A stretch of DNA of 62,487 nt from a virus, in the IMG/VR virus record IMGVR_UViG_3300045988_093152, positions 1 to 62,487 of that record. One strand, 5' to 3'. How positions within the stretch are numbered: position 1 is the first letter of the stretch; each line of letters starts with the position of its first letter. A program made the position numbers and the translations under genes. Positions 8,375 to 61,401 of this stretch are shown piece after piece. The notes below the pieces were generated by a model. It had not been told where the DNA came from. It saw only the letters and a list, made by a program, of their open reading frames with translations, and made no database searches.

Positions 8375-8379
8375 AAATA

Positions 8380-16706: not shown

Positions 16707-17693
16707 TCAGATCTTATCGATGATGGGCCCGTCGCAGTTGAACCGCAGCATCACCGAGCGCTCCCCGCCGTTGATAAAGCTGTTCAGCGCATCGTCGCCC
16801 TTGACGTAGTTGGTCACACCGAAATCCACGTGGTTCTGTCGGGTCGTGTCGTTCGGGTCATAGATCCAGCCCACGATCTGGCCTTCCGGGGTCTTCAGGG
16901 TCACACCACCGTGGGTGCCCAGAGATGCCAGAACGTCATTCAGGAACAGGTGACCCTGGGTGCGCAGACGCTTGTTTGCCGCCTGCTCCATCAGGAACAG
17001 GTAGTTGCGGTTCAGCATATTGTCGGGCTGCCAGGTGTCCACAGTCTCGTCAAAGATGCAGGTATAGGGGCTGGTGTGCTGCATGGCGATGTCCTTGTAT
17101 TCCTTGATGGTCTCCTCCATGCCCTGCTCGTTGGTGCTCTTGCTCTCGAGCTCCACAGCCTTGATGTTGTGCTCCAGCTCCTCCTGAACACGGCTTCCAA
17201 AGCGGTCGGATACACGGCTCTTGTATTCCTCAAAGGCCTTGTCCAGAGCAATATAAGCCGCAGTCAGGCTCGCATTGCGCTTGGACATGATGTGGTGGGA
17301 ACCGAACATGCAGCCCAGAGATACCGCACCCAGGGTAACCGCAGGCGCATACACCTTTGCCAGCTTCAGGCCGGTCTGGACGTAGGTGGTCGTAATATCG
17401 CTCTTGTAATCCTTCTCGGTGTAGGTCTCGCCCTCGCTCAGCTGGATCTCACCGCTCTCGATCTGCTGCTTGGTCGTGTGGATGCTCTCCACCTGAGCAT
17501 TGTGCTCGGTCAGAATATCCTGTGCCTTGATGGTCGCCTTGCAGGCCAGCACGGTAGCAGTCACACCACCAATGGCAGCGCCAACGATCATAATGGTGGG
17601 GCTTGCCTTCTTCAGCTTGTAGCCGCACTTGGATGCAGTACGGGTCATCTTTTCCATGATTTCGGTTTTGTCGATCTTTTTCAGGAACTTCAT
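16707..17693 (-). CDS. two-TM protein, paralog A of a three-member family
   Basis: Shares its architecture with 18825..19610 and 20155..20964: N-terminal TM, KAxxIL, second TM, N..L.AAY, C-terminal GW motif. Confidence 0.7.
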   Translation of the reverse strand: MKFLKKIDKTEIMEKMTRTASKCGYKLKKASPTIMIVGAAIGGVTATVLACKATIKAQDILTEHNAQVESIHTTKQQIESGEIQLSEGETYTEKDYKSDITTTYVQTGLKLAKVYAPAVTLGAVSLGCMFGSHHIMSKRNASLTAAYIALDKAFEEYKSRVSDRFGSRVQEELEHNIKAVELESKSTNEQGMEETIKEYKDIAMQHTSPYTCIFDETVDTWQPDNMLNRNYLFLMEQAANKRLRTQGHLFLNDVLASLGTHGGVTLKTPEGQIVGWIYDPNDTTRQNHVDFGVTNYVKGDDALNSFINGGERSVMLRFNCDGPIIDKI

Positions 17694-17716
17694 AAATATC
17701 AATCCTTTCTTATTGT

Positions 17717-20154: not shown

Positions 20155-20964
20155 TCAAAACGGTTCCCGTCTGGTCGGGTCGTAATCCAGATACTCTTTG
20201 ATCGGCTCCTGGAATGCTGTCACATAGTACACTTCCAGTCCATCATCCGTTGTCTGCCGGGCATAGTTGAAGTCGATCCAGTAATATTCCCACTCGTTGC
20301 TCAGATACTCCGCGCACCAGCCCAGCATATCTCCTTCCGGTATAAAGTCCAGTCCGGGCAGGAAGGAGTAGAAGTCATTCAGCGAGACTTCTCCATTCAA
20401 CGCAAAGTTCCGGTTCACGTTGTAGAAGGCATCCATCAGCTCCGTTTCCGTTGCATGGAAATATCTTTTTGAGATAGGCTCGTAACAGAGCAGCTTTTCT
20501 TCGTCTGTGCCTGCCGGGGTGGGGGTCTCCAGAACATCCTGCGTGTCCTTGTAAATATCTTTTTCTTCTTCCACGCCGATCCGCTCTGCCACCTGCCTGC
20601 GATACTCCTGATAGGTCTTTCCCAGCGCCATATACGCCGCGGTCAGGCCTGCGATCTGCTTTTTGTTCAGCGCGTTGGAGCCCAGGATGCAGGCAATGGT
20701 ACCGCTGCCAAGAATCGCAGCCGGAACGTATGCTTTCCAGCACATCTGAACAATTTGTTTCTTTGTCGGAGGCTCTTCTGTCACTCCAAACTCGTTTTCG
20801 TTGAACTTTGTCAGCTCCTTGTCAACTTCAAGTATATGCTGCGCCTTCGTAGTCGCCCGCCCGGTCTCGATGGCCGTTGCCACCACGCCTACAGATGCCG
20901 CCACCGCCAGAATAGTCCCGCCGTGCTTGCGCAGGAATTTCGCGCATGTTTTCGTCAGTTTCAT
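20155..20964 (-). CDS. two-TM protein, paralog C
   Basis: See 16707..17693. GDMLGWCAEY motif. Confidence 0.7.
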   Translation of the reverse strand: MKLTKTCAKFLRKHGGTILAVAASVGVVATAIETGRATTKAQHILEVDKELTKFNENEFGVTEEPPTKKQIVQMCWKAYVPAAILGSGTIACILGSNALNKKQIAGLTAAYMALGKTYQEYRRQVAERIGVEEEKDIYKDTQDVLETPTPAGTDEEKLLCYEPISKRYFHATETELMDAFYNVNRNFALNGEVSLNDFYSFLPGLDFIPEGDMLGWCAEYLSNEWEYYWIDFNYARQTTDDGLEVYYVTAFQEPIKEYLDYDPTRREPF

Positions 20965-25786: not shown

Positions 25787-27007
25787 GTGCTTATAACCTG
25801 TCCAGAGTGTGAATTGCAAATTTCTGATAAGGCACTTGTATGCCCTCATTGCGGTTTTCCACTCAAGAAGAATGCTCAAGTGTATCCTAGAAAAGCAAAT
25901 AAACGTCGTAGGCTGCCAAATGGATTCGGACAGATTTCAGAAATCAAGGGGCGCAATCTACGAAAGCCGTTCAGAGTTTTAGTAACCGTAGACAAAGGAT
26001 TAGATGGGAAACCAATCTGTAAGCCGCTTCAGCCACAGTCTTATTTTGAAACCTACAATGATGCATATTTAGCATTAGTTGAATACAACAAGAATCCATA
26101 TTCCATCGAGAAAAATATTACCATGGATGAATTGTATCAGGCATGGCTGAAGGAATACAGGACGCATGTTGGAGAGAAGATGATAGAAAAGACTGAGTGT
26201 TGCTGGCGGTATGTTCGCAAAATTCACAATATGAAATTACAGCAAGTTCGTATTCCACAACTCAAGCTCGCACTCGACGAGGCAACAACCTATAAAAGTG
26301 GCAACGAAGTAGAACTTCCTCGTTCAGCTAAAGGCAGAATCAAAAGCCTGTTCAATCTCATGTTTGACTATGCAGTAGAGAACGAGCTTGTTCCGCAAAA
26401 TTATGCAAGGTCTTTTGCTCTTTCCAGATCAGATCAAGAAGAAACAGCTAGAGTGGACAAAAGTCACATCCTATATTCAGACGAAGAGGTTGAACTGATT
26501 TGGGGCGCTCTCCCGGTCTATCCATATCTTGATATTACTTTAATTCAATTTTATTCTGGTTGGCGGCCCAATGAACTTTTGAGCATGAAACTAGAAGATG
26601 TTGATTTAGAGAACAAAACATTTCATGGGGGCTCCAAAACTGTCGCAGGTAAAAATCGTATTGTGCCAATTCATTCCAAAATATTCCATTTTGTCGAACA
26701 GCACTATAATGAAGCTGTTGCCGCAGGGAGCGAATATGTATTTCAATCAGATACCCAACCTGGTAAGGCATATACATACGATCGGTATTATGTTCGACTT
26801 ATAGAAGCACGCGATGCCTTGGGGCTAGATAAAAGTCATCGCCCCCATGATGGTCGTGTTCAGTTCGCAACCATGGCAAAGAAAGCTAAAATGGATCAAT
26901 ATGCACTAAAGAAAATTCTCGGTCACTATATCGACGACGTGACCGAGAAGTATTATATAAAACCTGGGATGGACTGGCTCCGAAACGAAATCGAAAAGAT
27001 CAAATGA
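25787..27007 (+). CDS. int: tyrosine recombinase (integrase) with N-terminal zinc ribbon
   Basis: GTG start after AAAGGAGG. CPEC...CPHCG. Catalytic-region motifs SGWRPNELLSM, HRPHDGRVQF, LGHYIDDVTEKYY. Confidence 0.9.
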   Translation: MLITCPECELQISDKALVCPHCGFPLKKNAQVYPRKANKRRRLPNGFGQISEIKGRNLRKPFRVLVTVDKGLDGKPICKPLQPQSYFETYNDAYLALVEYNKNPYSIEKNITMDELYQAWLKEYRTHVGEKMIEKTECCWRYVRKIHNMKLQQVRIPQLKLALDEATTYKSGNEVELPRSAKGRIKSLFNLMFDYAVENELVPQNYARSFALSRSDQEETARVDKSHILYSDEEVELIWGALPVYPYLDITLIQFYSGWRPNELLSMKLEDVDLENKTFHGGSKTVAGKNRIVPIHSKIFHFVEQHYNEAVAAGSEYVFQSDTQPGKAYTYDRYYVRLIEARDALGLDKSHRPHDGRVQFATMAKKAKMDQYALKKILGHYIDDVTEKYYIKPGMDWLRNEIEKIK

Positions 27008-32464: not shown

Positions 32465-33289
32465 TCAGTCAATATAGTTCTGAGGGACAAATAAAAATGT
32501 AGACGTTCTCACCAGCGTATTCAGCGGCAGCACGATGCAGGGGCGCAGACCGTACGAGTCCTCTCTGTGGCCGCCTACACTGGAAAAACTACCATCCTTA
32601 TAGAACGTGTACATATAGTTGCCGTTGTAGCTTCGCTTGGAGCGTGTCCAGTATATAGTGTCTGCTTTTCGCTTGTCGGTGGCAGCAGTCGTGTAGTCGA
32701 AGTAATCCAGTTTTGCACCTTCTTGTGCCATCAGGCCATCTATGCCCTGCCAGGTGTAAACGCCCATCTCGACCGCGGAAAGCAGAAAGCACTTTCTCGA
32801 AAGGCCGTTCGAGCCGGAGGAAACATTGGCCGAACTGTAATCCGCCTGTTTCACGTAGGGCAGATGCACGGTCATCAGGCGGTTTGCTACACTGGGTGTG
32901 ATATTTCCGCCCGGGTAGTTGACACACCAGTTGTCCAGCGCATACTTTTCGTAACCGTAGATGTAGTTACTGCTATCGATCGCTGTTGAGCCTGCAATGT
33001 TCGACCTCCAGAGCCATGCTCCGTTTGCCGTGCTGTCGTATAACCCGCCGCCCGGAACGCCCTTATGGATCAGCTTATACCAGTAGGTATTGTTGCCGCT
33101 CGGGTCTGCAATGCCAAATAGTGTCCCCAATGCAAAGGAGCTGATGGGATTGCCGCCGTCATAGAACTTCTTGGCTACGCCATCCACGCCGATATAGCCC
33201 TTGTGCACTGTCCTTGCGGCACCGTCCACGCCGGTGTAGATTTTGGAGACCGACTTGGCACTTCCGTCAATTCCGGTATAAATTGCCAT
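32465..33289 (-). CDS. tail fibre / receptor-binding-region protein
   Basis: N-terminal repeats YTGIDGSAK/YTGVDGAAR/YIGVDGVAK. C-terminal YWTRS...YGLRPCIVL motif, typical of the surface-binding domains I recall as DUF6273-like. Confidence 0.55.
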   Translation of the reverse strand: MAIYTGIDGSAKSVSKIYTGVDGAARTVHKGYIGVDGVAKKFYDGGNPISSFALGTLFGIADPSGNNTYWYKLIHKGVPGGGLYDSTANGAWLWRSNIAGSTAIDSSNYIYGYEKYALDNWCVNYPGGNITPSVANRLMTVHLPYVKQADYSSANVSSGSNGLSRKCFLLSAVEMGVYTWQGIDGLMAQEGAKLDYFDYTTAATDKRKADTIYWTRSKRSYNGNYMYTFYKDGSFSSVGGHREDSYGLRPCIVLPLNTLVRTSTFLFVPQNYID

Positions 33290-47630: not shown

Positions 47631-49415
47631 TTAAGTGGCCCACTCAACGGCCATTGCGCTGAACGGGGTGGTCAGAGCGCCGGAGCAGCGGGTCTCGATC
47701 AGGTACTTCTGCGCGTTGAAGTCGATGTCGAAGTCATCGAACATGGAAACAGCGCCGCCCTTGTCAGCACCCACAGTGTAATCGGCCAGGTTGACAACGA
47801 TAGCGACCAGGTCGCCGCCCTTGGCACCCTTGCGGCCCTCCATCTCGGGCACAGTCACGATCTTTGCAACACGCAGCTTGCGGGCCAGAGCAGCCTCGTC
47901 GGCATACAGCGGGTGGCCGATGCCGTCCTCCAGCAGGAGCATCTCGGTCAGAGCGTCCTCGGTGGTGAACAGGGTCGGAGTGCCGGAGCCGCGGTAGTCC
48001 TTGCGGGCACGGATGATCTGCTTGATCAGGGCCTTGTACTTGTCCTCCACGGTGGTCAGGCCGGTGGTCTTGCACTGAACCTTGATGGTAAACAGGTCTG
48101 CATCATTGAAGACGGGGCGGATGCAGTTCTCATCGATCTTGTCCTCAGAGGCTGCCAGACGGCCATCACCCAGCAGGTATGCCAGAGCCAGCTCACGGTT
48201 CAGCTTCAGGCGCATCTCCTGCTTCAGCCATGCCACAACGTCAAAGCTGGTAATGTCGATCACATCGTCGCGATCCAGCTTCTGCTTCTTGTAGACGGTG
48301 GTGGGGCTGGTGGAGCGGCGCAGCAGGCCAAAGACCTCTTCCTTCTTGAAGTTGCCCTTGATGTAACCCTTGGCGCGAGCATCCTCCTCGGTCAGGTCAG
48401 CAAACATGCTCTTGAAGCGGCTGAACGGGATGTGGTGGACAGCGCCCATGACCACGCTCACCCAGTCGTCGGGCTTGTCGATGATGCGGGGCGTGGTGTC
48501 CAGCAGGTGATCCTCAGGGAACAGCCAGTCGATGTTGTCGATGCTGTGGGCCAGCTCGTCACTGTCCATGCCGGCATCCTCAAAGGCAGCCTTCATGGTG
48601 CCGTGGCTCTTGGCGGTCTTGACCACCTGGTTGATGTCCTCAATGCTGTGCTTCAGCACGGTCTGGTTGGTGTCCTTGTCAAATGCATTGTGCTTCACGG
48701 TATCGTCCTCCTCACCGTCATCGTTGTTGCCGCCTTCCTTCTCTTCCAGGGCCAGGCCCACCAGAGCGTGGCAGCACTCTTTCTGCTCGTCGGTCATGCT
48801 GTTGTAGACCTGTTCGAGCGTCTTGCCTTCGTTCTTTTCGTCCGCCATTTTGGCTTCCTCCTGTGTTGCTTTATCGTCGGTCACGGCATCGCCGCTGTCC
48901 GCACTGTGTGTAAGGTCTTCCAGCGGGTTGCCCTCGGGGTCCATGCCGTGGGTCAGGCTCAGGCCGTCCTCGTTATAGATAAAGGCCTCGCCGCCCTCGT
49001 AGTCCTCTTCGGCACTGTGCTTCACCACCTCGTCGATCAGGGCACCCGGGTTGCATCCGGCCAGCACCAGGCTCACTTCCCGGATAAAGCCGTGCTTCAC
49101 GGTGCTGCCCACCTTCTTCAGGCCGTTGGCAAAAATGGAAAAGGCGCTCAGGTCGCCGCTCTCCACGCACTGTCTTGCGGTCTTGCCGGTGTCGGTGTCG
49201 TTGAATTTGGCATAGCAGTACACGCCGCCGGGCCGGTTCTCCAGCAGGCAGTGGCCGATCACATTGTCCACGTTGGCGTGGTCGTGGTTGTACACCATGG
49301 GCACAACCTTGCCGCTGCACTCCTTAAAGGCATCCTGCGCGATCACCAGCCCGTCATAGCACCGGACGTTCGCTTTCGTCGCCCAGCCGCTGCAATCGTA
49401 GTCAAAATTAACCAT
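47631..49415 (-). CDS. prohead protease (HK97 S78-type) fused to major capsid protein
   Basis: N-terminal VPMVYNHDHANVDNVIGH...SAFSIFANG...REVSLVLAGCNPGA is protease-like. The C-terminal ~400 aa are HK97-fold-capsid-like. ATG at 49415. Confidence 0.75.
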   Translation of the reverse strand: MVNFDYDCSGWATKANVRCYDGLVIAQDAFKECSGKVVPMVYNHDHANVDNVIGHCLLENRPGGVYCYAKFNDTDTGKTARQCVESGDLSAFSIFANGLKKVGSTVKHGFIREVSLVLAGCNPGALIDEVVKHSAEEDYEGGEAFIYNEDGLSLTHGMDPEGNPLEDLTHSADSGDAVTDDKATQEEAKMADEKNEGKTLEQVYNSMTDEQKECCHALVGLALEEKEGGNNDDGEEDDTVKHNAFDKDTNQTVLKHSIEDINQVVKTAKSHGTMKAAFEDAGMDSDELAHSIDNIDWLFPEDHLLDTTPRIIDKPDDWVSVVMGAVHHIPFSRFKSMFADLTEEDARAKGYIKGNFKKEEVFGLLRRSTSPTTVYKKQKLDRDDVIDITSFDVVAWLKQEMRLKLNRELALAYLLGDGRLAASEDKIDENCIRPVFNDADLFTIKVQCKTTGLTTVEDKYKALIKQIIRARKDYRGSGTPTLFTTEDALTEMLLLEDGIGHPLYADEAALARKLRVAKIVTVPEMEGRKGAKGGDLVAIVVNLADYTVGADKGGAVSMFDDFDIDFNAQKYLIETRCSGALTTPFSAMAVEWAT

Positions 49416-50670
49416 TTTGATTTGCAATACTCCTCTCTACGGCATCCCGCCCTGCCGTGATTGTTTTGTTCTGCGCCGCAATTTCCTCACTGCTCTGGCT
49501 GATGTTTGCATTCCGCAGTTCATCTGCCTTGGGGTCCTTGCTGGGTTTCATGCCAATGGCCTGCCGGAACTCGTTGGAGGTCATGATCTCATTGCGGGTA
49601 AACTTGTCGGCCATTTCGGCAACGGCGGAAACAGGGGTCAGCTTGAACGGGTCACGGAAGTACATCACGGATTCCCGGTTCGCCCGGTCGTCCTCGGTCA
49701 GGAACTTCCGCCGGATCTCGTCCACGGCAGCCGCCACAATGGGTTCGATGGTACGGTTCTCGTAGTTGGTCATCACAGCATCGGAAGCAGTACCGTTCAT
49801 GATCTCCGGGGTGATACCCAACTGGCTGTATGCCATGTTGGTCAGGTATTCCACGGTCTTCAAAAGGTTGTTTTCGAGGCTGCGGTTCAGCTGCGTGATA
49901 TGCTCCGTGCCATCGGTGTAGGCAATGCCGTATTTGGAACCGGCGAGCTGCTGTTCGATCTGTGCCCGCCGTTCTTCGGCCTGTTTCTTCCGGGTCTCGC
50001 CCTTCACAACGTAGGGCAGCTGGATGATCAGGTCGAGCTTGCCGCTGCCCACCTGCTCGTCGATCACGTCCATCAGGTTCAGTTTCCGGATCAGGCGCTG
50101 CACCGTGCCGTTGGGCTCGTTCATCACGGCATAGAACGGGTTCTCCACCAGGGCCACCTGTGTCTTCGGCAGGGTGATTTCCTCTTTCCGTCCGGTCCGG
50201 TCGTTGTACACTTCCAGCCGCACGTCGTCCGGGTACCATTCCAGCACCTTTCCCACCCGCATGGATTCGATCCGGGTCTTACCGGTCTTTCCGTCGTAGT
50301 CCACGTCAATCGGCACCAGTGCAATGCATCCCTCATCCAGCATGGAAAGGAACATGTCATATCGCAGTGCCCGGCCCGTCTGGTCCTTGTTGCCGGAAAG
50401 ATTCAGGCAAGAATTAAGGCCCGAATCAACGGTTTCGTCGTAGCGTCCGTTTTCATCGAGCCTTACATGATTGATGGTGATCGCCGCAGCATCCATTGCA
50501 ATGCGGGTGTTGATGGCCGTCATAATCGTCCGGTCATTGGTTCGGTTCAGCCGTACCCGGTCGGGCCGGTTGCTGTAACCTCCCCCAATATAAATTTTTC
50601 CGGGAGGGTCCCGGTTCAAAAACGCATTCCAGGCGTGTCTCAGTCTGGAGCCAAAGGTTTGTGATGCCAT
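49408..50670 (-). CDS. portal protein
   Basis: 420-aa ORF between the terminase region and protease-capsid, GGAGGAAATCAAAATG start. Confidence 0.65.
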   Translation of the reverse strand: MASQTFGSRLRHAWNAFLNRDPPGKIYIGGGYSNRPDRVRLNRTNDRTIMTAINTRIAMDAAAITINHVRLDENGRYDETVDSGLNSCLNLSGNKDQTGRALRYDMFLSMLDEGCIALVPIDVDYDGKTGKTRIESMRVGKVLEWYPDDVRLEVYNDRTGRKEEITLPKTQVALVENPFYAVMNEPNGTVQRLIRKLNLMDVIDEQVGSGKLDLIIQLPYVVKGETRKKQAEERRAQIEQQLAGSKYGIAYTDGTEHITQLNRSLENNLLKTVEYLTNMAYSQLGITPEIMNGTASDAVMTNYENRTIEPIVAAAVDEIRRKFLTEDDRANRESVMYFRDPFKLTPVSAVAEMADKFTRNEIMTSNEFRQAIGMKPSKDPKADELRNANISQSSEEIAAQNKTITAGRDAVERSIANQNG

Positions 50671-50686: not shown

Positions 50687-51238
50687 TCAGGACTTCTTTA
50701 CAGCCGAAGCCATTGCGGCCGTTACAACGGCTTTTTTCAAAGCATCGCTCCCAGTCGCATTTACGGCAGCCGCAGCGATATCGCCATAGTGATTCAGCAC
50801 GGCGTCCACTGCCACCTTGCCAGCCACGCCCCCGATTGCACCGGCTGCGCCACCAACGATTTTGTTGCCGGCAGTTTTCAGCAGATCAGTCACATAAGCC
50901 TTACCAGGTGACGTGCTCTTCTTCAGTTCCAGATACTGCTTTTCTTTCTGCATCCGGGCGATTCGCTGATTCAGCTCTTCATCTGTCATCTTTTTGGGAT
51001 TATTAAAGTGAGCCTTTCCTTGAGGTGTCCATCCATCCTTGTCCATCGGGCGAGCCGTACCCTTCAAAAACCGTTTGGCAACATTTCCGGCTTTCTTGAC
51101 ACCGTTTTTGTAGTCATCCGCGGAGTACCGTTTTCTGCCAGCAGATGTCAAAGTACCATCCTGGTTCTGGTACCGCCGCACACCCCACTTCATGCCTTTG
51201 ATACCCCAATGGCACAGTTCATCGTTATAAACGGTCAC
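50687..51238 (-). CDS. leader-motif protein with glycine/alanine-rich hydrophobic C-terminus
   Basis: GTG start after AAAGGAGG. N-terminus CHWGIKGMKWGVRRYQNQDGTLTSAGRKRY. C-terminus GGAAGAIGGVAGKVAVDAV... Confidence 0.65.
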   Translation of the reverse strand: MTVYNDELCHWGIKGMKWGVRRYQNQDGTLTSAGRKRYSADDYKNGVKKAGNVAKRFLKGTARPMDKDGWTPQGKAHFNNPKKMTDEELNQRIARMQKEKQYLELKKSTSPGKAYVTDLLKTAGNKIVGGAAGAIGGVAGKVAVDAVLNHYGDIAAAAVNATGSDALKKAVVTAAMASAVKKS

Positions 51239-51303
51239 ACTTTACCTCCTTTGCAAATAAAAAACGCACCAGCAATTAAGCTGATGCGTTCAGATGTACC
51301 GTA

Positions 51304-51507
51304 TTACGGAATGATGTCTAAAATAGATTCGCACATCGTTCCTATCTCATTCGGAAAATAATTGTCATCCAACCCCCGATATTCCAGTTCATCGCCGACT
51401 CGTTCTTCGATTTTGGCCCACTCATCGGAAAAATCATCGATTTTGGTATAATCGTAATCAAGCCCCAGACTTTTCAAAAAATCGATCTGTTTCTCGGTAA
51501 GCATCAT
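51304..51507 (-). CDS. putative immunity protein for the upstream toxin
   Basis: 67-aa acidic ORF starting 4 nt after the toxin stop, GAGGTG SD. Confidence 0.5.
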   Translation of the reverse strand: MMLTEKQIDFLKSLGLDYDYTKIDDFSDEWAKIEERVGDELEYRGLDDNYFPNEIGTMCESILDIIP

Positions 51508-51510
51508 GGA

Positions 51511-51948
51511 TCACCTCTTAGTGTATTTTCGGATTGCATTATGCCCTGTTTTCCAGACAGTCGTGACACAGCCATTTTCGGGGTTCACGTTTACCGTAGC
51601 GTGCTGACCAATAAATCGTTGACTCGGCTGTCCCTTCTCATTATACCGCACCTTTATTGTATCAGAGTTTAGCGGCTTTTGCAACGCATCCAGCAATCCT
51701 TCCAGAGTCACCTGTCTGGTAGGGTCTTGGGTACGGTCCAGTGCATGAATTGATAGGCCTTTCACAAGGACACCATTTGAAGCATAAAACGGTTTTCTGA
51801 ATTTCCGAGCAGCTCTCGCTTCGATTGAATATCGGTCATGTGCGAGTTGCTCTTTTGTCCGCCGGACTCCCCATTTCATACCTTTAATGCCATAGTGATA
51901 AAGCTCATCTGGATTTCTCCATCTCCAGATGTTGGTATATTCGTGCAT
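51511..51948 (-). CDS. leader-motif protein with C-terminal RNase-toxin-like (DUF4258/BECR-like) domain
   Basis: N-terminus YHYGIKGMKWGVRR. C-terminus SIHALDRTQDPTRQVTLEGLLDAL...QRFIGQHATVNVNPENGCVTTVWKT resembles the H..R...R.I...V.V.....V.TV pattern of that toxin fold. Confidence 0.55.
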   Translation of the reverse strand: MHEYTNIWRWRNPDELYHYGIKGMKWGVRRTKEQLAHDRYSIEARAARKFRKPFYASNGVLVKGLSIHALDRTQDPTRQVTLEGLLDALQKPLNSDTIKVRYNEKGQPSQRFIGQHATVNVNPENGCVTTVWKTGHNAIRKYTKR

Positions 51949-52015
51949 GGTCAACCTTTCTTGATAATCCTTATATTTTATGATAAACTAAAGCTAAAAA
52001 ATGGGAGGCACTCTT

Positions 52016-52654
52016 ATGAAATTTCCACAAATATCACAAGAACAGGCTGCTTCTATTCTGGATGCCTGCTATGAAAAAGCACTTCATGGTGCCCCAGGGG
52101 CAAAAAGTTGTTCGCAGCTGGCAGAAGAATATCTCGAGAAATATCCAAACCCGATTACAGCAATAGATGAATTTGTGAAATGGCAGATTGGCAAATGCAC
52201 TACTTCCGGTTTTCTCACGAGCCTTGGTGGGATCATAACCTTACCCGTTACGCTTCCAGCCAATCTTGTAACTGTCTGGTATGTTCAATTACGGATGATT
52301 GGAACAATTGCAACCATTTCTGGTTGTGATCCATCAGATGATGACGTACAGGCACTCTCGTATATTTGCCTTGCTGGTGGCTCCGTATCTAAAATATGTA
52401 GAGAGGCAGGTGTTCAGTTCACCAATAAACTTACTGCATCTATGCTAAAAAGAATACCCGGAGCCGTCTTTACAAAAATCAACCAAAAAGTTGGTTTTCG
52501 ATTTGTTACAAAGGCCGGTTCAAAAGGGATTGTCAACATGGCAAAGCTCATACCTCTTGCAGGAGGTATCGTCGGCGGCGGAATTGATTATGTTGGCACC
52601 AAAGTAATGGCTGATCGGGCAATCAAGACATTCCTCTGGAAGAATTACGATTGA
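52016..52654 (+). CDS. EcsC-family protein (moron on the opposite strand)
   Basis: GGGAGG SD. SILDACYEKAL...FVKWQIGKCTTSGFLTSLGG...LVTVWYVQLRMIGTIA pattern recalled as EcsC. Confidence 0.55.
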   Translation: MKFPQISQEQAASILDACYEKALHGAPGAKSCSQLAEEYLEKYPNPITAIDEFVKWQIGKCTTSGFLTSLGGIITLPVTLPANLVTVWYVQLRMIGTIATISGCDPSDDDVQALSYICLAGGSVSKICREAGVQFTNKLTASMLKRIPGAVFTKINQKVGFRFVTKAGSKGIVNMAKLIPLAGGIVGGGIDYVGTKVMADRAIKTFLWKNYD

Positions 52655-52655
52655 T

Positions 52656-54401
52656 TCACTCAAACGCATCCCGGTTCTGTTTCCACGCCACGTAAGCGTC
52701 CATCATGGCAGCCACTGCATCGATCTTCTGATCCTGCCGCTGTTTGTAGAGCTTCCGGTTGCCATTGGTGTCCACCAGTGTAATGCAGTTGCCCATGGCA
52801 AATTGCATCAGCTGTTCGTCAAACAGCAGCTTCCGCTGTTCGCTCAGCTTTTTCAGCTCACCCAGCGGCACGCTTTCGGTCTTTGCACCCTGGATCACTT
52901 TCACAACGCCAAAGGTACTGTTTTCATCGCCCCAGCGCTTCACGAACTCCTGTGCGTTGTAGGGATCGTAGCCAAACGCCCGTACGTCGTACTCGTTCTC
53001 CATGATAAAGTTGTCCAGATCATCGTACACCTGCATCATGTCCAGGACCGTGCCGTCAAACACGAACAGGGTCCCTTCCCGCATAAACTCCTCATACTGC
53101 TGCCGTCTCGAAGCCGGAAGCTGGCTGAGGGTGTAGGATGTGATGTAGTCCCGCGTCTTGACCCCAAAATATCCATTGGACAGCGGAAACAGGAAGGTAA
53201 AGGCACAGAAGTCGTCGCCCATGGAAAGGTCCGCGCCCATGGCACAGGGCATCTGCCAGAAGCTTCTCTTCCTGTGGCATAGGGTCTCCTCGTAGGGGAA
53301 GAAATAGGTGTAGCCCTCCATAGGCAGATTGAAGCGCTTGGCCAGAATATCGTTTCGGGCGCTGGGGGATTTCTCCGCACGCTCCACGTCCAACTGGTAG
53401 GTCTCGTAGCTCACGGTCTTGCCCAGGTTCGGGTTGGCCTTCAGCCACATCTCCGGCTGGCCCACTTCCTCAATGGAGTCCAGCTTGTAGTACCAGATGG
53501 ACACATGGGGGTTGACGTACTCCCCTTTCAGGATGCTCATCAACTCCATTTTGATGTCGTCGCCGCAGCCGTTGCGCACCGTGCCCTCGGAGGAAGCCGC
53601 CACGATGAGATAATTCTCGTTCTTGGCTGCGCCCTGTTCAATGGCACCAATGGGGTCTTCCCGGATGTCGCAGGAGAGCCACTCGTCTACGGTCGCCACA
53701 GTGTCGCGCCGTCCTTGCAGCTTCTCAATGGTCATCGGGCGCACTTCCAGCAGGCTGTTGGTCAAAAAGTTCTCGATGCCCTTCTTGGTGGAAGCCATCT
53801 TCACCCGGTCTGCCTTGGAGCCGGTGGTGTTTTGCAGGCTGCCCTCTGTCATAAACTGGAACACCGGCCCCTTTGCCCGCGCCAATGCGGTGCGGAAGGG
53901 TGCCAGCACCTCCTCGGCCTGTTTCATGGTCGGGGCAGTGGTCAGCTGTTGGGTCGTGGTGGTGTACGCCGTCAGGAAGTAGGCCTGCAAAAACTCAAGG
54001 TACATGGTCTTCGCAGCCGATCGGGTAATGATGAGGTACTGCTTTGTCACCAGCCGCTTTTTCAGCCGCCGGGTCTCGTAGTGTCCACCGCCTCCGTGCT
54101 CATTCGGCACAAAGACGCTCCGCTCCACAAAGTAGTACCACCCGAAGATCTCTTCTGCCCATAGCTTAAAACTATCCAGCATCTTCACGTCGGTGCCGTC
54201 CGTCAGGGTCAGCTCGTCCTCGCAGAACGAAATAAAGCCGTTCACCGCTTTGTCGTCATAGTAGATGCCGGGGTTGGCGATCAGGTCGTCGATCCGCTCC
54301 ATCTCCATGGCGATTTCCCGGCAGACCGGTATTTCACCACGCATCACGGCCTCTCTGAAACGGCCGTAATAGATCGGCGTGGCCGTGTTCGAGAGTGCCA
54401 T
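52656..54401 (-). CDS. terL: terminase large subunit
   Basis: 581 aa. ATPase region ITRSAAKT, nuclease region GADLSMGDDFCAF and DAVAAMMDAY. AGGAGAATTGAAAATG start. Confidence 0.85.
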   Translation of the reverse strand: MALSNTATPIYYGRFREAVMRGEIPVCREIAMEMERIDDLIANPGIYYDDKAVNGFISFCEDELTLTDGTDVKMLDSFKLWAEEIFGWYYFVERSVFVPNEHGGGGHYETRRLKKRLVTKQYLIITRSAAKTMYLEFLQAYFLTAYTTTTQQLTTAPTMKQAEEVLAPFRTALARAKGPVFQFMTEGSLQNTTGSKADRVKMASTKKGIENFLTNSLLEVRPMTIEKLQGRRDTVATVDEWLSCDIREDPIGAIEQGAAKNENYLIVAASSEGTVRNGCGDDIKMELMSILKGEYVNPHVSIWYYKLDSIEEVGQPEMWLKANPNLGKTVSYETYQLDVERAEKSPSARNDILAKRFNLPMEGYTYFFPYEETLCHRKRSFWQMPCAMGADLSMGDDFCAFTFLFPLSNGYFGVKTRDYITSYTLSQLPASRRQQYEEFMREGTLFVFDGTVLDMMQVYDDLDNFIMENEYDVRAFGYDPYNAQEFVKRWGDENSTFGVVKVIQGAKTESVPLGELKKLSEQRKLLFDEQLMQFAMGNCITLVDTNGNRKLYKQRQDQKIDAVAAMMDAYVAWKQNRDAFE

Positions 54402-54434
54402 TTTCAATTCTCCTATTATAATAAGGTGGGAACC

Positions 54435-54707
54435 TTACGTTTTATCCTGAATCACTGTCCAGTATCTCGGCCAAGTGGTCATTTCCAAATATTCGAGCAG
54501 CCATTTAGGATCGCTCAAATCTCGTTCGATTCCATCCTCACGATGCACCACCAAATGCCCGTCGGCATTGATATACCAGTAATCTTTGTAGTCATGCCTA
54601 CCAGTTTCATCAACATAGTAGCAGTACATACAAATTTTCTTACCCGAAACCAATTGGCGATATGCTTCGGGCCATTCCATCAGGATGTTGCCTTCATGTT
54701 TCACCAT
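54435..54707 (-). CDS. hypothetical protein
   Basis: ORF track 54435..54746. An internal ATG at 54707 avoids the overlap. Confidence 0.45.
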   Translation of the reverse strand: MVKHEGNILMEWPEAYRQLVSGKKICMYCYYVDETGRHDYKDYWYINADGHLVVHREDGIERDLSDPKWLLEYLEMTTWPRYWTVIQDKT

Positions 54708-54711
54708 GTTG

Positions 54712-55062
54712 TCACGCTTCTTTCTCAAAATTATCGTGCTCCACATTCAGCCGCCATTCCATTTCCGCCACGGTGTTCTTCAGTGCTTCCATGGTAGTGC
54801 TGCTCTGTGGCGGGTCAAAGCCCAGCAGCCGTACCTTCACGGCCACGTAAGCCTTCACCGCTTCCACCTTCACCGGGTCGGCAACGAACTCCGTCCATTC
54901 GTTTTCTTTCCCGGAAATGGCATACCCTTCGCCGGGCCCCACGCCCATCTGCACCAGTGCAAACAGCGCCATGTTGATGTACATGATGATGTCCGCATCA
55001 AAGTCGGTGCACTCCTCGGCAATGCCCAGCAGCTTCTTCACGCTCATCAGGATCGAATTCAT
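54712..55062 (-). CDS. gp6-like head-tail connector protein, tentative
   Basis: VKKLLGIAEECTDFDADIIMYINMALFAL pattern typical of that family. Confidence 0.5.
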   Translation of the reverse strand: MNSILMSVKKLLGIAEECTDFDADIIMYINMALFALVQMGVGPGEGYAISGKENEWTEFVADPVKVEAVKAYVAVKVRLLGFDPPQSSTTMEALKNTVAEMEWRLNVEHDNFEKEA

Positions 55063-55655
55063 TTTGATTCCTCCTCGGCATCGCTGTCGCCACCCATAAT
55101 GTAGCTCATCATGGCGTAGTACCAGTCCTTCTGAGCCCTCGCCAGCAGTTCCAGTTCGGCCAAATGGTGGGACGCACCGTCCTTACCCATGGCCGCTTCT
55201 TTCTGTGCACTCTCCTCGACCAGCTTGGCCAGCCTCCCCGCATCTATCGCCACTTGACCAGGTTTCAGCAAAACGAGATCCCCCTCAGCACTCGGAGCAG
55301 CGTTTTGTGCGGTCACAGCATGATTCTCATCCCTCCGCGGGACAATCTTCATCCCATCAAGCGTAATATCCCCGGCCCGTGTTGCCCGCACCTGCTGCCC
55401 ATCCACATTCGTGGCCAAAGCATCGTCAAAGTCAAAGCCCTTGTTCCGCGGAGCAGCCGTATAGCCCTGCTGGAGCCCGGCTTCTGCAATGCCCACGTTC
55501 GCCCAGAGCAGTGCTTCGTCCAGCTTCGTCAGTGCCAGGCTCCTCGAATGACTCGGTGCAAGGTTCTGAATCATTGTTTCCGCTTCTTCCAGCTTCCGCC
55601 GCAGCCCCATGGCGTAGTCCTGCTCTCGCCGGTTAAATGCTTTTTTCTGGTACAT
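55059..55655 (-). CDS. hypothetical protein
   Basis: ORF track 55059..55670. ATG at 55655 lies 8 nt after GGAGG. Confidence 0.55.
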   Translation of the reverse strand: MYQKKAFNRREQDYAMGLRRKLEEAETMIQNLAPSHSRSLALTKLDEALLWANVGIAEAGLQQGYTAAPRNKGFDFDDALATNVDGQQVRATRAGDITLDGMKIVPRRDENHAVTAQNAAPSAEGDLVLLKPGQVAIDAGRLAKLVEESAQKEAAMGKDGASHHLAELELLARAQKDWYYAMMSYIMGGDSDAEEESK

Positions 55656-55756
55656 ACTCATTTCCTCCACTGGATATCAGACTTTCTTCTTTACATACAA
55701 CATACGGATTGATATACTTATCTCAAACGGTATTTCTTATACTTCGGAGGCAATAT

Positions 55757-56101
55757 ATGCAGTCTTACACCTGTCCAAACTGCGGCGCTCCTGTAAAAAT
55801 GGATGACCACGGTGCATTTCTCGAGTGTCCTTATTGCGGATCACAGTTCAAGCCCGATGATTCTTTATCTGATGAGCCAAGCAGTCGTCAAACGGATTCG
55901 GACGATGATAACGAAGAACTTCGCACCTATGCAGAAATAGTAAATCACCATATTCCAGAATTTTCGGTCACCGAATTTATCGATAGAGCCAAGCATATTC
56001 TCGAAAGAACTCTTGATTTTCTCGGTGATCACGGAATGTACATCCAAGTCGGTGTCGTTTTGCTTTTTGTCGCCTTAGCCATTGTCAGTTTCTTCTCGTA
56101 A
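55757..56101 (+). CDS. zinc-ribbon protein with C-terminal TM anchor (moron on the opposite strand)
   Basis: CGGAGG SD. CPNCG...CPYCG. TM segment VGVVLLFVALAIVSFF. Confidence 0.6.
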   Translation: MQSYTCPNCGAPVKMDDHGAFLECPYCGSQFKPDDSLSDEPSSRQTDSDDDNEELRTYAEIVNHHIPEFSVTEFIDRAKHILERTLDFLGDHGMYIQVGVVLLFVALAIVSFFS

Positions 56102-56102
56102 C

Positions 56103-56246
56103 TTATTCATGTTTTATCCATGGGCAGGTGTCGCCCGGTCTTCTTTCTCCGTCCGGCAGCTTCGGGCCCTTCCCCGTTCCGTAATGGATCACCTTGTGCG
56201 TTGCCGCCGAAACACAAATGGCGTTCTCCGGGTCAAGCAGCTTTTC
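56103..56246 (-). pseudogene. start-less remnant of an HNH endonuclease 3' end
   Basis: Encodes EKLLDPENAICVSAATHKVIHYGTG..PDGER.PGDTCPW, near-identical to the C-terminus of 56833..57291. No start codon; follows the GNAT stop directly in frame. Confidence 0.7.
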
Positions 56247-56282
56247 ACACTTGTCAGGATGTTTTCCATCTTGATTTTTTCC

Positions 56283-56831
56283 TTATTTATACTGATACTT
56301 AACCCATGGATCATCAGGGAGTACCGACGATTCGTCCAACTTAAATCCGGATTTCTCGGCGATTTTTATAGATCCAGCATTATCTTTTCTGGCCCACCAG
56401 ACAATTTGGTCGTATTCGTCTTTATGTGCGTCCAGCCATTTCATGCCTTTTTCGGCTACTTTTGAGCAATAGCCCTTGTTCCGATACTTACTTCCAGCTC
56501 TTGTTCCAATGGAGACCGCCACTCCTTTTTCATCACCAATGATGTCAAAAAAAGAAATAGGCACATCCCCTGATTTTTCAACAAAACGTTTTACGTATGC
56601 ATACCCATCCTCGGCTCTTTCCTGATAAACATCCCCATCAAGGTTGAGGAGTTCTCTGTCTTTTCGAGACATTGTTTTTACAATTTCGTTTACAGCATCC
56701 ATGTTTTTGTTTACATCCATGGCACGCTTCCGCGCTTTCCCCTCACTCGTCAATGTTCCATCCGGGTTCTGGAACCGGCGCACGCCCCACTTTTGGCCCT
56801 TGATGCCATGGTGATAAATATAATCGCTCAT
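56283..56831 (-). CDS. leader-motif protein with C-terminal GNAT acetyltransferase domain
   Basis: N-terminus YHHGIKGQKWGVRRFQNPDGTLTSEGKARKR. C-terminus YRNKGYCSKVAEKGMKWL...VWWARKDNAGSIKIAEKSGFK is GNAT-like. Confidence 0.6.
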   Translation of the reverse strand: MSDYIYHHGIKGQKWGVRRFQNPDGTLTSEGKARKRAMDVNKNMDAVNEIVKTMSRKDRELLNLDGDVYQERAEDGYAYVKRFVEKSGDVPISFFDIIGDEKGVAVSIGTRAGSKYRNKGYCSKVAEKGMKWLDAHKDEYDQIVWWARKDNAGSIKIAEKSGFKLDESSVLPDDPWVKYQYK

Positions 56832-56832
56832 T

Positions 56833-57291
56833 TTATTTCCTCCATGGGCAGGTGTCGCCCGGCTTCCGTTCACCATCCGGCATATTTTTATTTTGACCGG
56901 TGCCATAATGGATCACCTTGTGCGTTGCCGCCGAAACACAAATGGCGTTCTCCGGATCAAGCAGTTTTTCGCTGTGCTGGAGAACGTCATTTTTTGTTAT
57001 GGGGTTTATGTGGTGGATGGAGATCTTCGGTCGGATCGGCCTTCCGTCCCGCAGCACCCAGTCTGTGATCGGATGGTCTTTGCACCCCAGGTCGCATCCC
57101 ATGTCCCGGGCGATGATTCTGTCCCTGAACTGCCGCCACTCTCTCGATTGGTAGAAGTCCTGGTTCAGCCATCGGTCAAACCCGAAGGTGTCCTTCCCCA
57201 CCTCACCGTGCAGCTGTAAATATTCCAGCCGCTCTTCATAGGTCGGCAGGGTGCATAGTTCTGTGTAGCTTTTCATAAGCGCTTTCATCAC
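56833..57291 (-). CDS. HNH endonuclease (packaging-associated)
   Basis: ISIHHINPITKNDV...NAICVSAATHKVIH, located in the terminase region. Confidence 0.8.
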   Translation of the reverse strand: MMKALMKSYTELCTLPTYEERLEYLQLHGEVGKDTFGFDRWLNQDFYQSREWRQFRDRIIARDMGCDLGCKDHPITDWVLRDGRPIRPKISIHHINPITKNDVLQHSEKLLDPENAICVSAATHKVIHYGTGQNKNMPDGERKPGDTCPWRK

Positions 57292-58629: not shown

Positions 58630-61401
58630 TTACTTATTGAGTGCACTATAAACAGTAGATTCAGGAATGCCACAAGCCTTTGCGATTTCGGCATAAGAAT
58701 AACCGCTTCGCAGCATTGCACTTGCTTTGGATATCTTTGCAGAAGTCATAACAGTTGCATTCTTTGGCATTGCACGCTTCACAATTTCATCAGAATCAGA
58801 CGAATTAAGGAATTTCGTCAGCATGTTGTCTGAAATTGCACCAGCTTGAACAGCTTCCCATTCCTTATCCGTGAAGGTGACCTTGGATCTGCGTCCGCTT
58901 GCACCAACTGAATCACGAGCACGCTGCATTTCGACAGAAGAGATTTTCTTAATCTCTTTTTTATCTTCTGTAATGTTGGGGTTCAAACCTTGCTCTTGAA
59001 TCTTTGCCTTAATATTAGCATTAGCAATTAGCATCGCCTTGCGTTCTTTGGGTTTATTGGCGATCATATTTGCATACTTAGCTTTCAGCGAAGCTACTTC
59101 AGGGGCATACTTTTTAGCAGCTTCAGCACTGTATTCGAGTCCTTTCATATTAACAGCTTCTTTTCGAGCTTGAGCGGCCATGGCCTTCAGCTTATTAGAG
59201 AAGTCCGCATATAGGTTCTCTTGAACAGTGCCAGAAGACAGAGTTCGAGCATCTTTCGTTTCGGAAATCAGGCTGACAGTATCCTCCGCTAGACGCTTCT
59301 TGCCGCTTTTGGGGTCAGTGAATGTCCGTCCGCTCTCCTTGTAAATATACTCACCGGTCTCCTTGTCTATGCGGACACTGCCACGACGCTCCGGCACTCG
59401 TACTGTCTGCTTACGCCGGGACAGCAGCGTGGATGCACCACCATACTTAGTGTTTCCTTCTTCGTCAACACGAATCTGCCACTTCTGCTTCAGCTCGGGG
59501 ATGCCATTCTCGCGCTCAGAACGCTTATAGTCCAGCTTATGCTTTTCTGCATCGATAACGACCATAGAGTGCTTAACCGCACGTGCAAGCTCGTCCTCAT
59601 CGGCACCTCGCAATGTCATATCAGTGATGAGGTTGGAGATCACGCCCATTTCGCGCTGCTTCTCCTCTTTCTTCATCAGCCTGACATTGTTCGGATTGCC
59701 TTCAGGAACTGCATAAGCAGTCTTAGGATCGAATTCTTCGAGTGCTTTCAATGCACGGGTGGACTTGATGTTGACCTTGTCGGTAACAGGAATCGCCATA
59801 ACCGTGTCGCCATCGAAGTCTGCGCCCGAAAGCCGCTCTGCAACCTTTGCATTGATGCCGATTGCATCCTGAATTGCACCGAGATTCCGCTTGCCGCTGA
59901 CGTTCTTGTTGTTGACGGTCACGATAGGAATCTCGAAGGTGCCTGCATGAGGATAGCGAATCAGTGCAAGTCTGGTGCCATTCTCATAAGTAGGACAATA
60001 AGCCTCTGTCTCCTTGATCTTATTGATCGGCAGGATAACCTTCGTGGACTGGCCCGGGAATGCAGATGCCTTCAGGGTCATGGACGTTCCTTCAACCGTA
60101 TCAGCAAAATCGTTGAGCAGCTTCTTTTTGACCGTAGGACTATCGTACCGCATGATCTCATCATATTGGGCTTTGTAATCCGCAACAGTAAGGTTAAGCT
60201 GGTTCTCGATCAGCTTTTTAGGCTGCTTGGAAAGGAACTGAGAAGAGACGTTCCGAGACATCGTATCCCAGTCGCCTTCCTCCTTCAGCTTATTGATCGG
60301 CGAGAGGTGCTCTTTGCCATCGTCACCGATGTACATGCTCTGGCCGTTAGCCTTGATAGCTGCGCCAAACGGGTTGTCAGGATCAGCTTTTGCTTCCTTA
60401 AGGACCTTCATCTTGGGCGTGCCGGAAGGCTTGTTGGTGTTAAACATAACGTCCACACCATCCGGCAGGTCATCAGAATAGACTGCCATACCTTTCAGAT
60501 AATGGTCTCCGTCAACGAGGATACGAACCTGCGCATAATGGCTCTTGCCCAGATCGAGGTCAGGAACACCACGGCGAATCTCCATAACGCCGTCTTTATC
60601 CAGGCCGCCTTCGTCGCCATAGCGAATCGCAACACGATTGGAATCCAGACTTGCAGGACGCTGAAGCTTCGTAAAGGTCTCGCCGCCGTCATCAGAATGG
60701 TAATCGCCCAGAGAATCGATCTGATCCTGATGCTGGTAAGCATACTTCTGGTCAAACTCAGGCTTCGCAAGAACTGTAATGTTCGTTTGCTGGCGAGGAT
60801 TGGTAGGCTGCTTGATGCCCACACCGTAGCGCTTATAGCCATATTCGGCCTCTAACTTGTATGCGGCCTCATCCAACTCCGTTTGAGTTATTCCTAAAAC
60901 AGAATTTGCTCCTTCAGAAATGTCAATTATACCTTTTTTATCGACTTCAGCCTTCAATGTATTTGCGATATTTACAGCACGTTGTTCTTTTTTACTAATG
61001 TTGCCATTATATTTAGAGCGAACACTAGATTCGCTCATCCCTAGTTTATCACCAATTTCTTTCCATCCAAGACCATCTTCTTTTAGAGCACGAATCTTGT
61101 CGTACTCCAATGCTTGGCGTTCATGTGTAGCCGTCCGCTGAGCTACTCTAAACTCTGTAAGCCCCATTTTATATTCATCGGGAAGAGAATTATTGATAGT
61201 TTCCAGAATATCTTTTTCAGAGAGGCCTTTCTTTTTTAATTCTTTCACCCGGGACAAAAAATCACCAGAATGCTGATACGGATTATCACCAGAGCCCCAG
61301 GGATAACGCCCGGAATGGCGTTTCGTACCGTAATGCTCCAGAATATTACTTTCAGAGGTAATGCCAAAATAAGAACGAAGGTCTTTTTCAATCGGGTTCA
61401 T
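58630..61401 (-). CDS. YonO / QDE-1-like two-barrel (double-psi beta-barrel) RNA polymerase homolog with terminal HTH-like regions
   Basis: HYLKGMAVY...VMFNTNK. LALIRYPHAGTFEI, then about 39 aa, then LSGADFDGDTVMAIPV (compare beta-prime NADFDGDQMAVH). HSMVVIDAEKHKLDY. C-terminal GYSYAEIAKACGIPESTVYSAL. Confidence 0.65.
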   Translation of the reverse strand: MNPIEKDLRSYFGITSESNILEHYGTKRHSGRYPWGSGDNPYQHSGDFLSRVKELKKKGLSEKDILETINNSLPDEYKMGLTEFRVAQRTATHERQALEYDKIRALKEDGLGWKEIGDKLGMSESSVRSKYNGNISKKEQRAVNIANTLKAEVDKKGIIDISEGANSVLGITQTELDEAAYKLEAEYGYKRYGVGIKQPTNPRQQTNITVLAKPEFDQKYAYQHQDQIDSLGDYHSDDGGETFTKLQRPASLDSNRVAIRYGDEGGLDKDGVMEIRRGVPDLDLGKSHYAQVRILVDGDHYLKGMAVYSDDLPDGVDVMFNTNKPSGTPKMKVLKEAKADPDNPFGAAIKANGQSMYIGDDGKEHLSPINKLKEEGDWDTMSRNVSSQFLSKQPKKLIENQLNLTVADYKAQYDEIMRYDSPTVKKKLLNDFADTVEGTSMTLKASAFPGQSTKVILPINKIKETEAYCPTYENGTRLALIRYPHAGTFEIPIVTVNNKNVSGKRNLGAIQDAIGINAKVAERLSGADFDGDTVMAIPVTDKVNIKSTRALKALEEFDPKTAYAVPEGNPNNVRLMKKEEKQREMGVISNLITDMTLRGADEDELARAVKHSMVVIDAEKHKLDYKRSERENGIPELKQKWQIRVDEEGNTKYGGASTLLSRRKQTVRVPERRGSVRIDKETGEYIYKESGRTFTDPKSGKKRLAEDTVSLISETKDARTLSSGTVQENLYADFSNKLKAMAAQARKEAVNMKGLEYSAEAAKKYAPEVASLKAKYANMIANKPKERKAMLIANANIKAKIQEQGLNPNITEDKKEIKKISSVEMQRARDSVGASGRRSKVTFTDKEWEAVQAGAISDNMLTKFLNSSDSDEIVKRAMPKNATVMTSAKISKASAMLRSGYSYAEIAKACGIPESTVYSALNK

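Follow-up and report, generated by a model that had tools for sequence, protein, structure and literature searches.

Three genes in the head module of a temperate gut siphophage encode small proteins that begin with one short basic leader, H-x-G-I-K-G-x-K-W-G-V-R-R, and then diverge completely. The phage sequence, IMG/VR record IMGVR_UViG_3300045988_093152, was analysed over its full 62,487 nucleotides (the window); it is a whole 62.5-kb contig of the lineage that includes Lactococcus phage 1706, Rhodococcus phage ReqiPepy6 and Faecalibacterium phage FP_oengus. The leader belongs to the Pfam family DUF7211 (PF23847), and on balance we favour the view that DUF7211 is the lineage's constant N-terminal module of polymorphic small proteins, acting as a capsid-loading tag for varied cargo. 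The peptide is most likely such a tag because it precedes unrelated domains, because one of these is a swappable toxin accompanied by a putative antidote gene, and because the genes reside in the neighbourhood of the packaging genes.

A six-frame scan of the window returns exactly three exact matches to the motif, at 51173-51211, 51859-51897 and 56775-56813, all on the minus strand; the best non-exact matches carry four mismatches and fall in non-genic frames. With 11 fixed residues and about 125,000 six-frame positions, we estimate the chance of one match at ~1e-9. The 39-nt segments encoding the motif are 28-30/39 identical in pairwise comparison, with 5-7 codons differing synonymously and 1-2 non-synonymously, and since most codon differences are synonymous, conservation is at the protein level. 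An earlier note on this DNA had described a leader shared by these three open reading frames (ORFs), conserved as protein rather than as DNA and followed by unrelated tails, and all of this is borne out: downstream of the leader no alignment is found among p183, p147 and p182, which continue into a Gly/Ala-rich hydrophobic tail, a toxin-like domain and a GNAT acetyltransferase respectively. An extension of the leader, Y/F-Q-N-x-D-G-T-L-T-S-x-G-x-x-R, is common to p183 and p182 and lacking from p147.

The gene for p183 (50687..51238, minus strand), the core DUF7211 protein of the lineage, lies directly upstream of the portal gene and starts from a GTG at 51238 behind the ribosome-binding site (RBS) AAGGAGG. 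Its leader, residues 1-38 (51125..51238, minus strand), joins the core H-W-G-I-K-G-M-K-W-G-V-R-R to the extension Y-Q-N-Q-D-G-T-L-T-S-A-G-R-K-R-Y, and is followed by a conserved helix, MTDEELNQRIARMQKEKQY, and a hydrophobic, glycine-zipper-like tail (maximum 19-residue Kyte-Doolittle hydropathy 1.39) whose Gly/Ala-rich nature is read from the sequence; the protein matches phrog_32444 (E 1e-30). In p147 (51511..51948, minus strand) the leader precedes a C-terminal toxin-like alpha/beta domain, and the protein is 145 amino acids (aa) long from an RBS-supported ATG at 51948 or 147 aa from a TTG two codons upstream at 51954, the ATG being likelier. The third protein, p182 (56283..56831, minus strand), carries its GNAT domain at about 56340-56621, with matches to Acetyltransf_3 (33.7 bits, cutoff 25.4; E 7e-8) and Acetyltransf_1 (22.7 bits, cutoff 20.7); its ATG at 56831 has the RBS GGAGG and stands one base past the stop codon of an HNH gene. 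The AlphaFold2 model of p183 has a mean pLDDT of 53 and no globular fold. The leader itself is modelled at about 35 pLDDT in p147 and at 40-51 over the first 20 residues of p183, with the Q-N-x-D-G extension at about 70, and low confidence in these two proteins is what would be expected of a docking peptide.

The leader had not been recognised as a named family, but it is one, albeit uncharacterised: the Pfam model of DUF7211 covers 25 positions and bears only the label 'Family of unknown function', and literature searches for DUF7211, PF23847 and KWGVRR found no paper. Against the gathering cutoff of 27 bits, p183 (49.1) and p147 (46.1) lie above and p182 (26.3; E 4.8e-6) just below, and our own leader hidden Markov model, built from 286 motif instances, gives the p183 and p182 leaders 78.9 and 75.7 bits. 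In PHROG the leaders match 12-13 families, among which one bears the label 'virion structural protein'. Searching with a profile built from all three leaders yields 35,216 representative proteins at E<=1e-3, of which 19,628 reach E<=1e-10. In the best-scoring of these a ~32-residue unit, L-x-H-H-G-I-K-G-Q-K-W-G-V-R-R-Y-Q-N-x-D-G-S-L-T-x-x-G-K-x-R-Y, is present two to five times, and a copy stands at the protein start too in 126 of the top 150.

To describe placement we relied on our own ORF calls on fetched loci, in three samples (two of viral contigs and one of bacterial genome contigs) ranked by similarity to leader-containing queries, the contigs being mainly of gut and rumen origin. The first copy is N-terminal in 139 of 145 ORFs in the first viral sample, in 211 of 219 in the second and in 219 of 224 on genome contigs. 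The description of the leader as an N-terminal motif holds for nearly all ORFs, but must be qualified by the many proteins that hold two to five copies. The multi-copy proteins are unlikely to be artefacts of gene calling, since they are uninterrupted standard-code ORFs on both viral and genome contigs. As a query for viral loci a single multi-copy protein gave no match, but an alignment of multi-copy proteins did yield loci; a 34-aa consensus leader used as a tblastn query on cultured phages returned 8 records only and was too insensitive for mapping the distribution.

What stands behind the leader is highly diverse. Stripped of it, 255 unique tails fall into 81 clusters, the largest of which is the p183 type (99 of the 255), a helix and then a hydrophobic Gly/Ala segment. 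The p183-type helix, written as the regular expression [S/T]-D-x-E-L-x2-R-I-x-R-L-x2-E-x2-Y, is found in 56 tails, and a hydrophobic segment in 101 (~40%). Most tails have no match in Pfam, but some are identified as GNAT, Gln_amidase (Tox-PL1) and Ntox50 (E 1.3e-19). The database search for C-terminal domains that the earlier note had suggested thus finds one leader joined to the p147-type domain, Ntox50, Tox-PL1/Gln_amidase and GNAT; MuF toxins, too, carry Ntox50 and Tox-PL1 (PMC3482391). Arrays of up to 8 tandem genes in one phage might be taken to mean that the shared N-terminus has no signal function and is simply a remnant of repeated duplication in a fast-evolving paralogue family. We regard this as highly improbable, given that codon differences within the motif are mostly synonymous, that the core is near-invariant between phages of Actinobacteria and Firmicutes while the tails adopt unrelated folds (GNAT, Ntox50, papain-like), and that the toxin exchange observed at the p147 locus starts precisely past the leader.

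The toxin-like domain of p147 (about residues 55-147 in the TTG numbering; 51514..51792, minus strand) contains the invariant motifs S-x-H-A-L-D-R and P-S-Q-R. Residues 60-144 share 47% identity with the C-terminal 85 residues of a MuF (PF04233) head-morphogenesis protein of Flavonifractor phage Chenonceau, and the domain resembles the 3' end of minor-capsid (MuF-type) genes in many Streptococcus prophages, in several records of which the similarity extends into the next annotated ORF. Directly downstream of p147, and with a good RBS, is a 67-aa ORF (51304..51507, minus strand) that encodes a candidate immunity protein; it is 39% identical (E 2e-14) to a 69-aa ORF that follows the Chenonceau MuF toxin gene, and p147 relatives in prophages are followed by a 66-aa ORF. 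NCBIfam gives no match for this small ORF or for the three leader proteins, and the p147 domain has no match in Pfam and none in the PDB by profile sequence search. The alpha/beta domain is modelled at a pLDDT of about 80-90, and its top Foldseek matches, all below significance, are the CdiA-CT structure 5i4q (E 0.096, probability 0.84), 8ey4, colicin E5 (3ao9) and RelE (1wmi), so that the model may bear a weak resemblance to the BECR RNase toxins.

A comparison with sibling phage L022, whose large terminase (TerL) is identical to that of the window at 582 of 583 residues, shows how this locus varies. The L022 protein in the p147 slot is identical to p147 over residues 7-31 (IWRWRNPDELYHYGIKGMKWGVRRT), and similarity stops after Q-L-[A/G]-H; past this point L022 has an Ntox50 domain, unrelated to the p147 domain, and then a 59-aa ORF unrelated to the 67-aa ORF of the window. 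Toxin domain and downstream ORF have been exchanged jointly. Exchange of a toxin and a small ORF behind a constant N-terminus defines polymorphic toxins, and from these comparisons p147 and its neighbour are a putative toxin-immunity cassette. The idea that the leader defines a polymorphic set of effectors is upheld by the toxin domains, by their immunity-like partners and by this swap behind an identical leader.

The earlier comparison with MuF polymorphic toxins (Jamet et al. 2017, PMC5576092; Zhang et al. 2012, PMC3482391) was apt: the p147 domain has its homologue at the C-terminal end of a MuF protein, and the ORF downstream of p147 has one in the ORF that follows there. Both systems occur in the head module of temperate Firmicutes siphophages, with TerL, portal and capsid genes adjacent and an integrase in the case of the window; both join a constant N-terminal part to a C-terminal toxin that varies, with a small immunity-like ORF downstream; and they share a repertoire of Ntox50, Tox-PL1 and the p147-type domain, itself present on a MuF protein. 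However, p183, p147 and p182 do not match the MuF domain (PF04233, PF06152 and MuF3/4 profiles). While MuF is a folded domain of more than 100 residues, the constant part of DUF7211 proteins is a peptide of 25-40 residues with no predicted fold; a genome has several carriers, the tails are mostly non-enzymatic and often hydrophobic, and multi-copy, polyprotein-like forms occur. The position of the genes also differs, since DUF7211 genes lie upstream of the portal gene and around TerL, and MuF genes after the portal gene.

This position is strongly conserved. Across ~240 related loci the order is polymerase, small ORFs, DUF7211 gene(s), TerL, DUF7211 gene(s), portal and protease-capsid fusion, the identities of neighbouring gene clusters having been verified with Pfam. 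The TerL-portal interval holds 92 DUF7211 genes in the first viral sample, 88 in the second and 70 on genome contigs; upstream of TerL there are 17, 82 and 101, and downstream of the portal gene none, none and one. Among 588 DUF7211 ORFs, 529 are in loci with a recognisable TerL or portal gene, and 528 of these stand beside TerL upstream of the portal gene and one downstream. Between two and seven DUF7211 genes are present in 66 of the 78 loci of the second viral sample. The interleaving with HNH, terminase and portal genes that was described for the window is confirmed by its gene order, and a head-module location now holds over hundreds of genes: HNH (56833-57291) is directly upstream of p182, TerL (52656..54407, minus strand; TerL_nuclease E 7e-36) has DUF7211 genes on both sides, and the portal gene (49408..50670, minus strand; Phage_portal E 2.7e-15) is the downstream limit of the DUF7211 gene island. 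Prophage copies are found mainly in Lachnospiraceae, Oscillospiraceae, Faecalibacterium and Christensenellaceae, with some in Coriobacteriia.

Cultured members of the lineage show the same arrangement. In ReqiPepy6 the genes gp015-gp021 are all of the TerL-portal genes, and each product starts D-x-F-L-A-H-Y-G-V-K-G-M-K-W-G-V; gp013 has an internal copy. In phage 1706, ORF7 lies directly upstream of TerL and contains two diverged motif copies. Both this ORF7 and ReqiPepy6 gp019 bear the label 'structural protein' in their records, and these labels are the only hint of encapsidation. The ReqiPepy6 gp013 protein (L002 1448-3043) has an enzyme-like domain ahead of its internal DUF7211 copy, and then a p183-type helix and hydrophobic tail. 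Two H-x-T motifs (HMTL and HVTM) in this N-terminal domain, as read from the sequence, give it a resemblance to 2H-phosphoesterase or RNA-ligase-like domains, and a tblastn match in Gordonia phage Fazel falls under a gene annotated 'RNA ligase'.

The hydrophobic segments of ~40% of tails, and the fact that some prophages carry the toxin cassette in their early region near the integrase, would be compatible with proteins that never enter virions and serve instead at the host membrane, in a secretion or lysis route, or as addiction or exclusion toxin-immunity modules of the lysogen. We consider this unlikely. No hydrophobic h-region follows the RR, which sets the leader apart from Sec and Tat signals; the same leader precedes soluble tails, GNAT and RNase-like; the same toxin cassette is found on a MuF head protein elsewhere; and all but one of the 529 placed ORFs are beside TerL upstream of the portal gene. 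As specific candidates, the Tat, Sec and WXG-type secretion signals were each rejected from the sequence, which has W-G and not W-x-G in addition to lacking a hydrophobic region after the RR.

Returning to a capsid-loading tag, we propose a model in which the short basic leader, having no predicted fold, would dock in the assembling procapsid, its partner being either the portal or the protease-capsid fusion (scaffold or inner face), and the cargo behind the docked leader would be encapsidated and later ejected into the infected cell. The cargo of p183 would be a coiled-coil and glycine-zipper protein, likely membrane-acting; that of p147 would be an RNase-like toxin, neutralised by the product of the 67-aa ORF; and that of p182 a GNAT acetyltransferase. 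The capsid-targeting sequence of phage T4 is a short N-terminal peptide shared by IPI-III, which serves in prohead loading and injection and is removed by the prohead protease gp21. The likeness, a short N-terminal peptide common to unrelated proteins and linked to a prohead protease, is offered as an analogy only; the sequences are unrelated, and the T4 signal is cut off at L/I-x-E, whereas the cuts predicted for DUF7211 proteins would precede the leader, which would stay. Encapsulin cargo-loading peptides are also short, disordered and sometimes repeated, and dock diverse cargo inside a shell of the HK97 fold. They have a different motif, are usually C-terminal and are non-viral, and again we suggest a possible analogy and claim no homology.

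What the leader binds might instead be nucleic acid, such that a basic peptide tethers these proteins to phage DNA or to the packaging motor and not to a capsid protein. The motif is rich in K/R and G and has no predicted fold, the genes flank the terminase, and the MuF protein gp7 of SPP1 binds both DNA and the portal (PMC5576092). The invariant H, W and spaced G residues, however, suggest a specific protein pocket over electrostatic DNA binding. In tailed phages, moreover, DNA-bound proteins cannot cross the portal during packaging, and we think a nucleic-acid tether quite improbable.

The proposed model has a second component, the prohead protease. In the window this is part of a fusion of a prohead protease (S78), a scaffold-like linker and an HK97-type major capsid protein (47631..49427, minus strand), identified from a Phage_capsid match in the window and a Peptidase_S78 match in a cluster relative. 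The linker (~residues 130-300) contains the candidate sites VVKH↓S, LTH↓G, LTH↓S, VKH↓N, LKH↓S and LAH↓S (the arrow marking the putative cut), the last of them just ahead of the capsid N-arm. Three phages with 49-81% overall identity have invariant His positions in an otherwise variable linker, and in 18 parsed linkers 93% of His residues precede S/G/A/N/T/D and 87% have L/I/M/V at P2, a pattern that also holds phage by phage. The same signature accompanies internal copies of the DUF7211 motif: H[SDTGAN] occurs 4-30 residues upstream of 76% of 178 such copies, against 10% of control windows in the same proteins, with an aliphatic P2 residue (L/I/V/M/A) in 86% of these sites and the consensus [L/I/V/A/M]-[K/R]-H↓S-[D/A]-[I/L]. 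N-terminal copies start where the residue after the His would stand (M-SGGAYIEGNTLILGDSSYLEHHG compared with KH-SSIGGNMNYIYGNTLVLGDSSYLEHHG), and their lead lengths match the His-to-motif distances.

As this His signature also pervades the protease-capsid linker, the multi-copy proteins may be substrates of the prohead protease. In the model, S78 would cut at hydrophobic-x-His↓Ser/Gly/Ala sites and so free the capsid protein from the scaffold linker, and the same cuts would split multi-copy DUF7211 proteins into units that each start with the leader. Our inference is a single protease specificity for linker and multi-copy proteins alike, and the latter would then be located within the prohead. 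The p147 protein has a QLAH↓D site just past its leader, at which a cut could likewise free the toxin. The Q-L-A-H in question (51838-51849, minus strand) sets the boundary between leader and toxin exactly after a hydrophobic-x-His, and as such fits the candidate site consensus and could release the toxin; Arg replaces the His in two distant relatives.

That the DUF7211 genes adjoin the protease-capsid fusion, and that protease-type sites accompany the motif in multi-copy proteins, raises the question of whether the leader is mainly a recognition or cleavage tag for the prohead protease, cut after the RR and with no role in docking. This seems very unlikely. The earlier note had raised the possibility of cleavage after the RR, for which there is no support: site enrichment is seen 4-30 residues ahead of the motif, and what follows the RR is either the conserved Y-Q-N-x-D-G extension or variable residues. 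The capsid linker, for its part, has no G-V-R-R-like sites, and a leader removed straight after synthesis would leave its strong conservation unexplained.

A further protein may be related to this system. The YonO-like RNA polymerase of the window (923 aa; 58630-61401, minus strand; phrog_4291) has the N-terminal peptide L-E-H-Y-G-T-K-R-H-S-G-R-Y-P-W-G-S-G-D-N-P-Y-Q-H (61267..61347, minus strand), and the extreme N-terminus is conserved in the polymerase family as L-x-H-Y-G-x-[K/P]-R-x-S-G-R-Y-P-W-G-S-G-x-N-P-x-Q. A weaker related string had been noticed here; it is present and conserved, but hhalign relates it to the motif only weakly (P 3.5e-4, probability 37%), which is suggestive of a possibly diverged relative of the leader and does not establish membership of DUF7211. 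Given this weak resemblance, the polymerase may also be packaged. Capsid-packaged effectors injected with DNA are exemplified by the Dar antirestriction proteins of phage P1 and by the virion RNA polymerases of N4 and crAss-like phages, although these have neither a shared leader motif nor polymorphic toxin behaviour. In a wider and more doubtful form of our proposal, which we put forward tentatively, DUF7211 would be a portable loading peptide for HK97-type heads, the viral equivalent of encapsulin cargo peptides and able to load whatever protein is joined to it, S78 would cut both linker and cargo after His, the polymerase would also be delivered by the virion, and the whole would amount to a programmable injection system. 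If so, such a protein-injection system would be widespread among the phages of gut Clostridia and Actinobacteria.

Several observations weigh against a capsid-loading tag and its protease component. The assignment of the p147 domain to a toxin fold is weak, the best Foldseek match having an E of 0.096. The 'structural protein' labels on 1706 ORF7 and ReqiPepy6 gp019, though in its favour, are depositor or PHROG annotations, and literature searches for virion proteomics of phages related to the window were without result. In prophages of the same lineage, recognised by their 1335-aa primase-polymerase, relatives of p147 (62% identical) and the 66-aa ORF are located in the early region near the integrase. 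The near-exclusive association with this lineage may be overstated, because the locus samples were similarity-ranked and came mainly from gut and rumen contigs. With regard to cleavage, the His↓Ser sites could belong to an extended conserved N-terminal element instead of being cut, and no S78 protease is known to cut after His.

The DUF7211 family is a hallmark of a phage lineage that spans gut Clostridia and soil Actinobacteria. A loading role, if true, would give a testable function to an uncharacterised family of more than 35,000 representative proteins, and would add to MuF a second polymorphic toxin family associated with phage heads, with a possible effect on competition among gut bacteria. 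The short peptide might then be used for loading chosen proteins into phage capsids, and the predicted His↓Ser/Gly cuts would provide a concrete specificity for the fused S78 prohead protease.

With regard to the remainder of the window, the region is ~80% identical to FP_oengus, and a supercluster of 1706, ReqiPepy6, FP_oengus and actinophages has been described (Koert et al., bioRxiv 10.1101/842583). The integrase (25787-27007) marks a temperate phage, and there are also genes for a 1334-aa primase-polymerase, a helicase, a tape-measure protein and tail fibres. Between TerL and p147 is an EcsC-family-like gene on the opposite strand (52001-52654, plus strand; Pfam E 9e-8). It is missing from L022, in which the DUF7211 toxin gene comes directly after TerL; many relatives have an opposite-strand gene at this spot, and the EcsC-like gene looks like an inserted accessory gene.

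Elsewhere in the head module, a 203-aa protein (55059-55670, minus strand) scores 27.4 bits against the Acb2/Tad1 hairpin domain (E 4e-6), barely over the cutoff of 27, and could be an anti-defence, sponge-like protein. On the opposite strand, a 154-aa ORF (55637-56101, plus strand) encodes a zinc ribbon, C-P-x-C … C-P-x-C, with weak matches to zinc-ribbon families, and a C-terminal hydrophobic segment. The early region contains two phrog_2152 paralogues (16707-17702 and 20155-20964, minus strand), and in related prophages the matching region has three DUF6353 genes adjoining a DUF7211 toxin cassette. Prophages L005-L008, which carry P0169, have a DUF7211 toxin gene (~8001-8426) and the 66-aa ORF near the integrase, outside the head module. 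Finally, a gene amid the tail-fibre genes (32465-33289, minus strand) matches a Hoc-like head-decoration protein (phrog_10993, E 1e-15).

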